Shown in pieces: positions 7,401 to 20,465 of a stretch of DNA of 32,000 bases (the first letter of the stretch is position 1; every line of letters begins with the position of its first letter). This DNA comes from Methanocaldococcus jannaschii DSM 2661 (GTDB lineage: Archaea > AGJL01 > Methanococci > Methanococcales > Methanocaldococcaceae), in the NCBI RefSeq assembly GCF_000091665.1, contig NC_000909.1, positions 1,339,460 to 1,371,459 of the forward strand. The letters are read 5' to 3'. The notes below the pieces were generated by a model. The model had not been told where the DNA came from and searched no databases. It saw nothing but the letters and a program-made list of their open reading frames with translations. Position numbers and translations under genes: made by a program.

Positions 7401-7661
7401 ATGATGATGAAGAGATTTGCATTACTCTTTATTTTCCTTGCATTTATAACACCAACTTTTGCAGATGTTGAGGAAATAACAAACTATAATATGACCGTTG
7501 ATTTAACAAAAAATCCTGCACATATAACAAATGTTATAACTATTCAAAATCTTGTTAAGTATCCTCTTGTTCCAGGAATTGGGGAGTTAAGATTACAAAA
7601 AGAAGAGTCAAAGAAAATACTGATTATTCCAATACCATTTACAAAAGAAAAAAACCTGTAA
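7401..7661 (+). CDS. N-terminal half (signal peptide plus start of ectodomain) of a split surface-protein gene
   Basis: 86-aa ORF starting 10 nt after the previous stop, preceded by GGGGG. Signal peptide MMMKRFALLFIFLAFITPTFA. It ends at TAA 7659-7661, right after an A7 run. It has no TM anchor of its own. Confidence 0.6.
   Translation: MMMKRFALLFIFLAFITPTFADVEEITNYNMTVDLTKNPAHITNVITIQNLVKYPLVPGIGELRLQKEESKKILIIPIPFTKEKNL
7649..7655 (+). promoter_or_regulatory. A_AAA_AAC heptamer in the zero frame of 7401-7661: candidate -1 frameshift or slippage site, or an indel hotspot
   Basis: Zero-frame codons are GAA AAA AAC CTG TAA. The -1 frame is open from well upstream and continues from 7655 as PVKIENLRGYYIIGDKKYP into M 7712 of the next ORF. 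Confidence 0.3.
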
Positions 7662-7711
7662 AGATTGAGAATTTAAGGGGTTATTATATAATTGGGGATA
7701 AAAAATATCCA

Positions 7712-8110
7712 ATGGATGTAAATGTCTCTTATAAAGATACCTATTCAGTTATAACATATCAAGTATGGGAGCCAATAGATGGTGGAAAAAATATAACTCT
7801 AATAATTGAATATGATGCTGATATTGTTGATAATGGAATATTGTTTAAAACTGTCTCAATTCCTATTGGAGGGGATTTGAATATAAAAAACTTCCATATA
7901 AACTTTGTCTCTCCTTATTATCTAACCTACCAAGAACCAGATGGAAATAATTTCCAAATCCCTAAAAAAACTTTGCTTATTATAAATGCTGAGTTTTCAA
8001 TATTGCCATTACCGAAACTTCCAGTTCATGGATATGTGGTGTTTTGGTTAAGCATATTGTGTATATTAATAATAATATTTGTCTATACTGAGTTGAGAAG
8101 AAAAAAATAA
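7712..8110 (+). CDS. C-terminal half (ectodomain, TM anchor, basic tail) of the split surface-protein gene
   Basis: 132-aa ORF from ATG 7712, but its frame is open upstream through 7655 and beyond. There is no signal peptide and no convincing RBS of its own. It ends ...HGYVVFWLSILCILIIIFVYTELRRKK. Confidence 0.6.
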   Translation: MDVNVSYKDTYSVITYQVWEPIDGGKNITLIIEYDADIVDNGILFKTVSIPIGGDLNIKNFHINFVSPYYLTYQEPDGNNFQIPKKTLLIINAEFSILPLPKLPVHGYVVFWLSILCILIIIFVYTELRRKK

Positions 8111-16927: not shown

Positions 16928-16940
16928 TTCGTCAAAAAAT

Positions 16941-16961
16941 TGTTCTATAAATCTTAAATAC
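16941..16961 (+). promoter_or_regulatory. Shared promoter-region motif, copy 3 (TGTTCTATAAATcttaaATAC), 32 nt upstream of ATG 16993
   Basis: Lies in the 65-nt gap after the giant gene. It shares the 13-mer with copy 2 and has the same ATAC spacing in all three copies. Confidence 0.45.
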
Positions 16962-16983: not shown

Positions 16984-18444
16984 TTGGGGACCATGAGATC
17001 GGTATATTTAATTATTATTATTATACTATTTTTTGCATTTATTTCTTTAAGTTTTGGGGAAATATATGAGTATAGGGGGGTTGTATTTTATCCAAATGGT
17101 TCTCAAACAGTTGATGTATCTAAGTTACATATAGATTATGAAAATCCCGATGCTTTTAGCATCTATATATCTTATAGAAACTCCTCCTTTTATCTTCCAT
17201 ATTCAAAAAATATAACTCTTAATCTCCCCCCAAAAAAATTTAACATATCCATAACTATATCTGCAAGTAGAATCAGCAGAGATGAATGGAGGGTATATTA
17301 TAAAATAATCAATAACTATCCCTACAGTATCTTATTTAACATATCTTTTCCAGGAGGATTTAACATTAAAAATGCATCAGTCTTAGTTCCTGCCAAGTCC
17401 TATAAAATAATAACTTTATCAAAAATACAAAATTCAAATATTTTATATTTCGGAGATAGCAATATAAGTTTTGAAGTACCCGCTAAATTGATGATAAGAT
17501 ATTCTCTGCCAATACCATTTTCCATAATAAAGTCAAATAAAATTTTAAGTAATGGTTCTATTGAATGGACAGCTATTTATATAATAAAAAATGATAAGAA
17601 TGTCTCTTTAAATGTAAATGCAAGCTATTGGGCTGTTGTTAATAATACAAAAATAGATTTTGGTAATTATTCCTATATTATAGAACCTAATGAGAATGTA
17701 TCACAGTCATTTAATATCACTTCAGATTATGTTCCTATTTTTTATCTTAAATTTTATGCATGGCGAGATGTTTATGAAACTATAAAAATAAAACCAGCAA
17801 TTAAGGTTGATAATTCATACATTATTGGAATAGGAAAAGTTGAAGGTTTAAGTTTTAACATTCCATATTATAACTATATGGAAAGAGAAATAAAAAAGAA
17901 AAAAGAAGAAAAGGAAAACGAAGAGTCATCTAAAACTATAAACCAAATGCAGAGACATAAAAAAGAAGAGAAGTCACAGACTCAGGAGACAAAAAAACCT
18001 TCTAAAAATGAGATGAATAAACAAGAGAAAGAAAGAAAGTACCCACTAATAATTGAAGAAAAATTTAAAAAAGTAGCTGCTGCTATAGCCACAGTTACAA
18101 CTACTTCAATAACTGCTATGTTGATTCCTCCAATATTTAGGAGACGTTCATATATTGTTGATAAAGGGATTTTCTCAATTAAAGACCTTGAACTACTAAG
18201 TGGCACAGTATATGTTCCAGAGGGTTGTAAGTTAGGAAATATATTACCTGGAGGTATAACTATTATTAAACTTACTGATGTAGAAAAAGACCTTGCAAGG
18301 GACTTACATGAAATTTATGATATTCCTCTAAATTCAGCAAAAGCCATTATACTGGGTGTTAAGTATGGAGGTAGAGTATTTTTAAGTGATAAAAAGGCGT
18401 ATGATGTGGCAGTTGAAATAGGACTTGAAGCATATCTTTTTTAA
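16984..18444 (+). CDS. Single-pass membrane protein: signal peptide, sequon-rich ectodomain, K/E-rich linker, TM helix, ~100-aa cytoplasmic domain of unknown function (MJ1397-like)
   Basis: The ORF track starts at TTG 16984; ATG 16993 (MRSVYLIIIIILFFAFISLSFG) is more likely. The K/E-rich stretch is REIKKKKEEKENEE...KQEKERK. The TM helix VAAAIATVTTTSITAMLIPPIF is followed by RRRS (about 18072-18150). The C-terminal domain is YIVDKGIFSIKDLELL...VAVEIGLEAYLF. Confidence 0.8.
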   Translation: MGTMRSVYLIIIIILFFAFISLSFGEIYEYRGVVFYPNGSQTVDVSKLHIDYENPDAFSIYISYRNSSFYLPYSKNITLNLPPKKFNISITISASRISRDEWRVYYKIINNYPYSILFNISFPGGFNIKNASVLVPAKSYKIITLSKIQNSNILYFGDSNISFEVPAKLMIRYSLPIPFSIIKSNKILSNGSIEWTAIYIIKNDKNVSLNVNASYWAVVNNTKIDFGNYSYIIEPNENVSQSFNITSDYVPIFYLKFYAWRDVYETIKIKPAIKVDNSYIIGIGKVEGLSFNIPYYNYMEREIKKKKEEKENEESSKTINQMQRHKKEEKSQTQETKKPSKNEMNKQEKERKYPLIIEEKFKKVAAAIATVTTTSITAMLIPPIFRRRSYIVDKGIFSIKDLELLSGTVYVPEGCKLGNILPGGITIIKLTDVEKDLARDLHEIYDIPLNSAKAIILGVKYGGRVFLSDKKAYDVAVEIGLEAYLF

Positions 18445-18450
18445 ATAGAG

Positions 18451-18711
18451 GTGAAGTATGTGGTAGAAGAAAACAATAAAGAAATATTAATAAAATTGAA
18501 GAAAATTAGAAAAATGCAAAGGAGAAGAACGCTCATTGGTTCATTTTTAGTCTCAACATCCATAATAATTTCTGAAATTTCAGTGTTTATATTTGTTGGT
18601 GTTTTTAATATAGACATAAGCTTTGGATTGTTATTATTGTTTATTTCGTTAATTTTTTTATCGTTAGGGCTCTATTTAATCATGTATCCTCCACCTATAG
18701 TCATAGATTAG
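18451..18711 (+). CDS. Small two-TM membrane protein, translationally coupled between the flanking genes
   Basis: 86 codons from GTG 18451, which lies 6 nt after the previous stop and inside a GAGGTGA that could instead be the RBS. An alternative ATG at 18514 gives MQRRRTLIGSF.... Two hydrophobic helices. The next gene starts 7 nt after its stop. Confidence 0.55.
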   Translation: MKYVVEENNKEILIKLKKIRKMQRRRTLIGSFLVSTSIIISEISVFIFVGVFNIDISFGLLLLFISLIFLSLGLYLIMYPPPIVID

Positions 18712-18718
18712 TGAAATC

Positions 18719-19894
18719 ATGAAAAAGGACACTTTATTACTTATAATTTTAATCTTATTTTGCATCGTTCATGTTTATGGTATTTATGTACATATTTATG
18801 GTATTAATGTTAGCTTAGAAAATGTTAGTCAATACCTTTACAACACTACGGTTTATCTTTCTTATGAGAATGGAACTCCATGTTTTTATATTGGAGAGAA
18901 AAAAGAATTCGTGATTATTCCTCCATATATAAAAGTTGATAGAGACATAGCTCCTTTAATTAAAAAACTAAGATTTAAAATAGAGAATAAAAGTTATAAC
19001 CTTATCATTACAAAGAAAAATGTAAATACAAACAAGATGGCTATTATTTTTACTTCAATAAATGGTTCGAGAGAAGTTAATGGCAATAAGACAATTATCT
19101 GGATAAAAGACCCACTCAAATTAAAACAATCAGAGGTTGAGGCATTATATGAATTACCAGAAAAAGGAGAGGTTATAGCAAGATATAAAGACGGAAAACC
19201 AGCGGCGATAAAGATAAATAATAAAATATATGTTGGTTTTAAGCCAGATGAGGATGTTTTAGCTAATCTTATTTATATACATATAGTTAAGAAAACATCA
19301 AATCCTCTGCCCTATATACTTTTTACTGTTTTCTTAACTCTTGCATCTTTAATGCTAACTTTTCAAGAAACCCTAAAAAAGAAGTTTTTGGAGCTAATAT
19401 CTGCACTAGCATCAGTAAAAGTATTTATCCTCTCTCGTATAAATCTTCTTGATGAAGAAAAAGTCCTTCTAAATGACACAAGAAGAGAAATTTACAATTA
19501 TATTTTAGACAATCCTGGATGTCATTTAAGAGAACTTTCTAAAAACCTAAATAAACCAGTATCAACACTTACGTGGCATTTAAGAATATTAGAAAAAGCA
19601 AATCTAATTAAAAGTAAAAAATTTGGTAATCGATTAATTTACTATCCAGCAGATATGGATATGAGGGATTTGCCACTGTTATATTTAAAAAATGAAACGC
19701 AAAAAAGCATATTTGAATATTTATTAAAAAGTCCTGCTCATTTAAGAAAGATTGCTAAAGATTTGAATTTGAATGTTGAAACTGTAAGGTATAATTTAAA
19801 AAAACTGGAAAATCTTGGAATTGTAAAATCTAAAGAAGAGGGAAACAGAATAGTATATTATATAAATGAATCTATCTTAAAGTTTCATAAATAA
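18719..19894 (+). CDS. Membrane-tethered transcription regulator: N-terminal signal-anchor, ~185-aa extracytoplasmic domain, second TM, two cytoplasmic ArsR-type winged-helix HTH domains (MJ1398-like)
   Basis: 391-aa ORF.
- TM1: [17 protein letters not shown].
- TM2: [19 protein letters not shown] (~19306-19365).
- wHTH 1: [55 protein letters not shown].
- wHTH 2: [54 protein letters not shown]. Confidence 0.85.
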
Positions 19895-20465
19895 AGTTAT
19901 ATTTCTTATATTTTTCCAAGTTATTTAAAATTTCCTGTAAAATGTTGTCTAATTGATTTAAACAATCTTCAAAGCTTTTTTCATTAACTACTACAAAATC
20001 AGCCAATGCAATAGCATGTCCAATACTAAATCCTAACTCCCTCAAGTCCCTCTCTACAAATACTTCCCAGTTTGCTGAATCATCTTCCCTTCCTCTTTTT
20101 TTCAATCTCTCAAATCTTGTTAATGGAGAAGAGTGAATGGCTATTAAAACCAAAGGTTTATGTTTTCTAAAATAATTAACCTCATATAAGCTCCTTATAC
20201 CTTCAACAATAACTATTTCTTTATCTTTTAAATTTTCTTCTATATATTTTAGACATGCAACTGCAATTGCCTCATTTCCAAACTCCTCTCTTAGCTTTAT
20301 AGCTGTATTTCCAACATTTTCTGGAGTTAATTCTAAGCCTCTTTTTTTTGTTTCATATCTAACAACGTCTCCCATGGAAACTATTGGTAGATTATATTTT
20401 TTAGCAATTTCATAAGCTGAGCTTTTTCCCGCTCCTGGCATTCCTGTAATACCTATCAACAGCAT
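19872..20465 (-). CDS. P-loop nucleotide-kinase-like protein (adenylate/dephospho-CoA-kinase fold; UPF0200-type, MJ1399-like)
   Basis: 197-aa ORF. The Walker A motif sits at the N-terminus ([16 protein letters not shown]). Small kinase-sized protein. Its 3' end overlaps the convergent 18719-19894 gene by 23 nt. Confidence 0.75.

Follow-up and report, generated by a model that had tools for sequence, protein, structure and literature searches.

The window analysed here is a 32,000-nt stretch of the Methanocaldococcus jannaschii chromosome (positions 1339460-1371459; three replicons make up the 1,739,927-bp genome). It carries three closely spaced genes, called g1, g2 and g3 below, which follow the gene of a giant secreted protein (Table 1). 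By position they are presumably MJ1397 to MJ1398, with g2 perhaps lacking a number. They encode a surface protein with a cytoplasmic domain, a small membrane hairpin and a membrane-tethered protein with two winged helices. The trio is a real, conserved and previously uncharacterised three-gene membrane module; a literature search returned nothing relevant on the M. jannaschii cluster genes (MJ1393-MJ1398) or on AF2028. Each transcription unit of the cluster is preceded by the same promoter element, which plausibly provides g3, as a candidate tethered regulator, with a target. The gaps of 6 and 7 nt between the three genes, already reported in a preliminary description of this DNA, agree with the coordinates, and inspection of the sequence shows GGTGA-like ribosome-binding sites accompanying them. 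The GTG start of g2 aligns with an ATG in the orthologue of the closest relative (genome G001). A scan with sigma-70 promoter and terminator models did no better than on shuffled sequence and is uninformative for an archaeon.

The C-terminal half of g3 consists of two winged helices of the ArsR type. The Pfam families HTH_24 (1.6e-18) and HTH_5 (PF01022; 3.9e-15, 55.9 bits against a cut-off of 22) each match two stretches of the protein, as does the NCBIfam ArsR/SmtB model NF033788 (72.1 bits against a cut-off of 55), and the HTH_20 model is likewise matched well above its cut-off. Among solved structures, PDB entry 5DUK comes closest to winged helix 1 (E 5.5e-14). In an alignment of 27 sequences, the recognition helices are almost invariant from Methanocaldococcus to the Archaeoglobus-type contigs. 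The AlphaFold2 (AF2) model of g3 has a mean predicted local distance difference test score (pLDDT) of 84, with values above 90 for an alpha/beta ectodomain of 165 residues. Among the invariant ectodomain residues are W128, P132, L133, G150, A154, A162 and N183. A KKK patch follows the transmembrane (TM) helix and leads into a poorly ordered helix. Foldseek matches to the full-length model are dominated by winged helices, so that the ectodomain was left unclassified. For this domain a Pfam search from four lineages returned nothing and a sequence-profile search of the PDB only chance matches; in such searches with isolated g1 and g3 domains the chance matches were ribosomal S17 and designed repeat proteins. 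The ectodomain family is very small: at E <= 1e-3, a set of 1.84 billion proteins yielded 15 representatives. With few exceptions these are 350-410 residues long and share the g3 architecture, and almost no other architecture occurs.

The preliminary description placed the g3 ectodomain between two TM helices and two ArsR-type winged helices behind it. The ectodomain and both winged helices are borne out, but not the first TM helix: the first hydrophobic segment is short in many homologues and is therefore more likely a signal peptide or anchor. Across the family, N-glycosylation sequons occur in the g3 ectodomain at 3.1 per 100 residues against 1.3 in the winged-helix part (2.4-fold), where one of the sequons is a structural N-D-T of the fold. 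Together with the hydrophobic segments, the sequon excess in the ectodomains of g3 and of g1 (below) supports a topology with both ectodomains outside the cell and with the g1 C-terminal domain and the g3 winged helices in the cytoplasm, the side to which the preliminary description had also assigned the winged helices.

Two relatives depart from the g3 architecture. On contig L060 (2780-4351) a divergent 523-residue homologue, P0073, carries an extra sequon-rich domain of about 150 residues N-terminal of the ectodomain, and downstream of it lie genes for a PAS histidine kinase and two response regulators. Genome G001 encodes a soluble tandem winged-helix paralogue of 174 residues (L075 3667-5106, minus strand) with 33-38% identity to the cytoplasmic part of g3. 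It lies directly downstream of a 92-residue multi-TM protein and a 148-residue secreted PepSY-like protein and thus has the look of a 'split' version of the combination of membrane protein and double winged helix; M. jannaschii has no copy of this soluble paralogue.

The g1 protein is a stalked surface protein. Its AF2 model has a mean pLDDT of 80, with values above 90 in the all-beta ectodomain, and Foldseek with the full-length model finds tandem Ig-like barrels (transglutaminase C-terminal barrels, complement MG domains and RbmA). Sequon density across the family is ten-fold higher in the ectodomain (5.2 per 100 residues) than in the C-terminal domain (0.5), which fits the earlier proposal that the ectodomain is exposed and glycosylated. 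The 65-residue K/E-rich stretch had been described as juxtamembrane and ahead of the cytoplasmic domain. It is N-terminal of the TM helix, and homologues have Pro/Thr-rich or acidic low-complexity sequence in its place; on these two grounds it is read as a variable extracellular stalk. An RRR patch follows the TM helix directly.

The putative cytoplasmic domain of g1, about 100 residues long with the invariant motif IPL-x-SA-x-A, is novel and without detectable relatives. Searches of Pfam (tried from four lineages), NCBIfam and the PDB sequences found no relative, the PDB profile search giving chance matches only, and a homologue search restricted to this domain retrieved orthologues only. Because Ig-like barrels dominated the Foldseek result for the full-length model, the fold of the domain was left unclassified. 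Weak PIN-like features had been suggested for it. There is no Pfam match to support them, an hhalign comparison with five M. jannaschii PIN domains gave a probability of 3.8% that covered the last 24 residues only, and the acidic positions are not conserved: D390 is the sole invariant one, and the equivalent of the third PIN aspartate is Ser or Ala. PIN identity was therefore rejected. The last 25 or so residues (18370-18441; FLSDKKAY...GLEAYLF type) do resemble the end of the PIN domain of a 648-residue PIN-domain ATPase from the same genome (L056, G000:C1:1511099-1511446), a likeness that is local and not significant by hhalign.

The g2 protein begins with a cytoplasmic helix bearing an RRR patch, continues with two TM helices and ends in a conserved GLY...PPI motif. 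Its gene sits between g1 and g3 in nearly all syntenic loci.

The preliminary description presented the trio as a tightly coupled module and held that this idea would lose its basis if the three genes were syntenic in no other genome. Synteny is found in Methanococcales, in Archaeoglobus-type contigs and in other archaeal contigs, and the genes are conserved as a unit, yet one that is not self-contained but belongs to a larger cluster. Five Methanocaldococcus genomes share the gene order anchored paralogue(s), small anchored protein, giant protein, g1, g2, g3, which recurs with rearrangements in Methanothermococcus, Methanococcus aeolicus and Methanotorris. The same series occurs on contigs named Archaeoglobus sp. 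at NCBI, from a metagenome-assembled genome (MAG), and on further metagenome contigs. On these distant contigs the giant protein has 1781-2862 residues, the g1-like protein about 505-574, the g2-like protein about 82-113 and the double winged-helix protein 368-397, and the junctions are 4-nt overlaps or gaps of a few nucleotides; in the Archaeoglobus-type contigs g1 and the giant gene's stop codon overlap. A g2-like gene stands ahead of g3 even in its most divergent relatives and is itself preceded, where the contig extends far enough, by a gene whose product has the g1 C-terminal domain. No DNA-binding protein other than g3 is conserved in the cluster.

The trio is nevertheless an accessory part of the cluster, and the link between g1 and g2 is tighter than that of either to g3. 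Repeated losses of g3 and loci devoid of the whole trio establish its accessory status. The g3 gene is cleanly deleted in genomes G016 and G012, where g2 runs directly into a gene for a P-loop kinase-like protein. In-frame stops interrupt it in the MAG G008, a C-terminal remnant is all that is left in G015, and several Methanothermococcus MAGs have g1-g2 with no g3 nearby. Genome G010 (L077, C1:886000-903500) and a second locus of G011 (L078, C1:1563000-1572500) have anchored paralogues and the giant gene with no g1-g3. The giant protein is shorter there (1463-1601 residues), and in G010 a remnant of the g1 promoter element lies right after the stop codon of the giant gene. In M. jannaschii the kinase-like gene (19872-20465, minus strand) converges on g3, and the 3′ ends overlap by 23 nt (19872-19894); in the relatives that lack g3 it directly abuts g2.

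The promoter element, TGTCYAAAAAWTGTTCYATAAA, directly precedes a TATA-like box upstream of all three transcription units of the cluster. Its consensus is TGTCYAAAAAWTGTTCYATAAAT, followed after 2 nt by the TATA-like TWWATAC. It contains two direct half-sites, TGTC and TGTTC, which are 11-12 bp apart (about one helical turn) and lie immediately upstream of the region of the TFB recognition element (BRE) and TATA box. A 21-nt core has three perfect matches in the M. jannaschii genome, which is true by construction, and a single further match genome-wide at one mismatch. This lies outside the cluster (G000:C1:1396576), lacks the upstream half-site, is antisense to a CBS-domain gene and was judged to be due to chance. 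Matches to the 22-nt upstream part with at most two mismatches number 19 in 15 complete or near-complete Methanococcales genomes, and every one of them falls in a cluster locus. For the 14 other Methanococcales genomes the count at that threshold is 16 of 16, all upstream of orthologues and on the coding strand, and four genomes without the cluster have none. At three mismatches, matches are as frequent as with a reversed-pattern control. An alignment of the regions upstream of g1 orthologues shows conservation confined to the element, and in Methanotorris a copy stands 150 nt before g3 itself.

In distant GC-richer lineages a relaxed form, YGTC-N6-7-YGTWYC, is found before cluster genes (Table 1). 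Counts observed and expected from shuffles are 2 and 0.9 for L034, 1 and 0.07 for L059, and 1 and 0.23 for L060; the positional consistency of the motif weighs more than these counts. On contig L036 the relaxed motif with a TATA-like box also precedes a stand-alone response-regulator gene (12697, minus strand), which lies two genes downstream of g3 beside two TFB-like genes and a gene for an 88-residue helix-turn-helix protein.

Table 1. Genes, protein segments and promoter elements of the g1-g2-g3 cluster; positions are those of the window unless a contig is named.
Feature	Residues or size	Position	Strand	Basis or remark
First anchored paralogue, element copy	608 aa	2408..2439	+	before ATG 2515
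Giant gene, element copy	2894 aa	8158..8189	+	before ATG 8243
Giant secreted lectin/beta-helix protein	2894 aa	8243..16927	+	precedes g1-g2-g3 in every lineage with the trio
g1, element copy		16930..16961	+	CGTC-N7-TGTTCTATAAAT, then TATA-like TTAAATAC; 32 nt before ATG
g1	483 aa from ATG	16993 (ATG, likelier start) or 16984 (TTG) to 18444	+
g1 signal peptide	1-22	16993-17058	+	hydrophobic segment
g1 tandem beta-sandwich ectodomain, 14 sequons	23-295	17059-17877	+	AF2 model and Foldseek
g1 K/E-rich stalk, disordered	296-360	17878-18072	+	AF2 model
g1 TM helix	361-383	18073-18141	+	hydrophobic segment
g1 cytoplasmic alpha/beta domain, conserved	384-483	18142-18441	+
g2	86 aa	18451 (GTG) to 18711	+
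g3	391 aa	18719 to 19894	+
g3 signal/anchor segment	1-29		+	hydrophobic segment 5-29
g3 ectodomain	30-195	18806-19303	+
g3 TM helix	196-216	19304-19366	+	hydrophobic segment
g3 juxtamembrane helix	217-245		+	poorly ordered, pLDDT about 50-65
g3 winged helix 1	250-315 (approx.)	19466-19663	+
g3 winged helix 2	325-390 (approx.)	19691-19888	+
Relaxed motif, L034		before first cluster gene and before giant gene		two sites
Relaxed motif, L036		between g1 and g2		before g2-g3
Relaxed motif, L059		before g2-g3
Relaxed motif, L060/L061		before g3

Taken together, these features give roughly an even chance that g3 acts as a transmembrane transcription regulator on the surface-protein cluster to which it belongs, partnered in the membrane by g1 and g2. 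This reading rests on the agreement between paired half-sites and two winged helices, on the near-invariance of the recognition helices and on the standing of g3 as the sole DNA-binding protein conserved in the cluster. Lineages that retain the half-sites also have nearly identical recognition helices, which supports the pairing of g3 with the element. Genome G012 speaks for the pairing too: it has lost g3, and before its g1 both upstream half-sites have decayed whereas the TATA-like part is kept. Such a regulator would stay in the membrane as a one-component system, with its ectodomain outside, a single TM helix and the winged helices in the cytoplasm. The two winged helices of one chain would bind the TGTC and TGTTC half-sites at the three promoters of the cluster and, in several lineages, also upstream of the g3 gene. 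The g1 and g2 proteins, obligate-looking partners in a putative complex with g3, would probably relay the state of a surface assembly, the giant adhesin and its anchored paralogues, as the sensed signal. The site lies upstream of BRE/TATA, as it does for the archaellum activator EarA, and by this analogy suggests activation or recruitment. Repression or mere modulation would be compatible as well, given that the giant gene and the motif persist without g3.

Several points weigh against regulation of the cluster by g3. Because the three sites in the window served to define the motif, its specificity rests on the 14 other genomes, which are mutually related. Several genomes can dispense with g3, either with g1-g2 still in place (G016, G012) or with the giant gene alone (G010). 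Unlike G012, G016 keeps intact motifs although it too lacks g3, and G010, devoid of the trio, keeps the motif before the giant gene. The persistence in G016 and G010 means that cluster and motif have been maintained since the loss of g3 with no need for it. The element could also be bound by another factor or belong to the core promoter. Protein or RNA binding is, moreover, a further role of tandem winged helices: the top Foldseek matches of the g3 tandem unit are ScpB, which binds protein, and SelB, which binds RNA.

The ScpB and SelB matches and the persistence of the motif in genomes without g3 are what would be expected if the trio were a structural platform that anchors or assembles the giant adhesin. 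The winged helices would then be a protein-binding foot, holding for example the g1 cytoplasmic domain, with no DNA binding, and the element would be read by another, unlinked factor or would simply be a strong core promoter. Such a platform would also fit the Archaeoglobus-type contigs, where the overlap between g1 and the giant gene's stop codon points to co-production in stoichiometric amounts. However, the g3 domains match DNA-binding ArsR/SmtB, HTH_20 and HTH_24 families well above their cut-offs, with recognition-helix and wing signatures, and the cluster conserves no other DNA-binding protein that might read the element. The half-sites also survive in GC-richer distant lineages whose surroundings differ, unlike the prediction for a generic AT-rich core promoter. 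A platform is thus considered rather unlikely.

The repeated loss of g3 from loci that keep its neighbours (deletion in two genomes, in-frame stops in a third, a remnant in a fourth) could also mean that g3 is a genuine membrane regulator with targets elsewhere. The cluster motif would then be unrelated to it and the co-location a matter of co-inheritance on an accessory island. This is very unlikely, as the motif stands directly before g3 or g2-g3 in four independent lineages and matches with at most two mismatches are confined to the cluster in each genome.

Regulation by g3 could also proceed by release. As a latent regulator, g3 would be cut by an intramembrane protease after a surface signal, and the freed winged-helix part would act on the same promoters as a soluble factor. 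The layout of g3, an ectodomain, one TM helix and a poorly ordered juxtamembrane helix, allows this; homologues often carry Pro residues at the outer end of the TM helix, and M. jannaschii has genes for intramembrane proteases for which no natural substrates are known. On the other side, the 27-sequence alignment shows no conserved cleavage motif, and the TM helix has an Nout-Cin orientation, which is not typical of site-2 protease substrates. Many transmembrane regulators work without release (PMC10269533). Release is accordingly held to be quite improbable.

A bolder version of membrane-bound regulation, itself distinctly unlikely, makes the trio a surface-to-gene signalling device in which docking or load of the giant adhesin would be sensed by g1 and g2 and passed to g3. 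Bound to a direct-repeat operator at every promoter of the 17-kb cluster, the membrane-held g3 would both regulate the locus and tether it to the membrane, or alternatively be an intramembrane-protease substrate. If tethering held true, the 2894-residue adhesin would be transcribed, translated and exported beside its anchor.

Transmembrane transcription regulators (TTRs) form a class surveyed by Demey et al. in 2023, with about four predicted per archaeal genome (PMC10269533). The survey defines them by a predicted DNA-binding domain and at least one predicted TM region in one protein, and g3 falls under this definition with its two HTH_24/HTH_5 domains and the hydrophobic segments 5-29 and 196-216. 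With this survey and the experimental work on ArnR/ArnR1 (PMC13286277), membrane-tethered DNA-binding proteins are no longer the unfamiliar archaeal class that the preliminary description took them for. What is new here is the cluster-specific promoter element as a candidate operator, the TTR class being already known.

The likeness to ToxR and CadC drawn in the preliminary description holds for the logic of the system but not for the type, number and position of the domains. As in ToxR/ToxS, TcpP/TcpH and CadC, g3 has a DNA-binding domain fixed to a TM segment and an extracytoplasmic part that may act as a sensor, is co-encoded with small membrane partners and is a likely regulator of neighbouring envelope genes. 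In the ToxR-type prototypes a single OmpR-type winged helix is N-terminal (Nin-Cout), whereas g3 has two of the ArsR type at its C-terminus (Nout-Cin), behind a signal/anchor segment and the ectodomain. Also different are the g3 ectodomain, which has no detectable relatives, and the presence of two partners, one with a cytoplasmic domain of its own. Membership of g3 in the ToxR/CadC family was rejected on the C-terminal position and ArsR type of its domains; Trans_reg_C is absent from the 25 best of the 35 Pfam families.

The nearest archaeal parallels are found among regulators of surface structures. According to the account in PMC13286277, which cites Bischof et al. 2019, ArnR and ArnR1 of Sulfolobus acidocaldarius are membrane-bound regulators of archaellum and type IV pili genes, ArnR being a transmembrane protein with an N-terminal helix-turn-helix region. 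As far as that account describes them, they resemble g3 in being archaeal, membrane-bound helix-turn-helix proteins, and they regulate genes for cell-surface structures, as g3 is proposed to do, but ArnR has the opposite domain order, no sequence relation to g3, no such ectodomain and no conserved three-gene unit. Because of the domain order, and because the homologue lists of g3 hold only proteins of its own architecture, g3 is not regarded as an ArnR relative. EarA of Methanococcus maripaludis is summarised in the same source as a winged-helix activator that binds upstream of the BRE of the archaellum promoter. In that summary it is, like g3, a Methanococcales winged-helix protein, and its site immediately precedes the BRE/TATA of genes for surface structures, as is proposed for g3; it differs in being a soluble single-domain protein with no relation to the cluster. 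An EarA promoter can become factor-independent through BRE changes, as reported there (PMC13286277), which offers a possible parallel to the genomes that lost g3.

Each half of g3 matches the ArsR/SmtB proteins (CzrA, 1R1U; SmtB, 1SMT) and the small archaeal winged-helix protein 5DUK in sequence and fold. ArsR proteins form soluble homodimers and have metal sites and flanking dimerisation helices, whereas g3 is membrane-anchored and has two minimal domains of about 65 residues in one chain. The 27-sequence alignment contains no conserved Cys or His metal ligands, the single Cys268 being unconserved. With its membrane anchor, tandem domains and unconserved ligands, g3 thus stands apart from the soluble metal-sensing homodimers of the family.

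Membrane-tethered transcription factors are predicted to be common in archaea, and almost none has a known target, partner or signal. In a model archaeon, for which a genetic system exists, g3 comes with two conserved partners, a candidate operator of two half-sites at three promoters, natural 'knock-out' relatives and a candidate regulon made up of the lectin-bearing giant adhesin and the anchored paralogues. This makes it possible to test how regulation from the archaeal membrane operates and by what means archaea control their giant surface proteins. In addition, the g1 cytoplasmic domain and the g3 ectodomain are each a fold or family without detectable relatives.

Two further observations concern neighbouring genes. 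On three Archaeoglobus-type contigs (L032, L034 and L040) a gene for a protein of 235-241 residues with a Pfam match to 'AbpE_bact' converges on the 3′ end of g3. In M. jannaschii the cluster's small anchored surface protein is divided between two open reading frames (7403-7663 and 7712-8110, plus strand). It is a single intact gene for 235-246 residues in Methanotorris (L028 4438-5178), in G010 (L077), in G011 (L078) and in the Archaeoglobus-type contigs, and the split points to a stop, a frameshift or a sequencing error.

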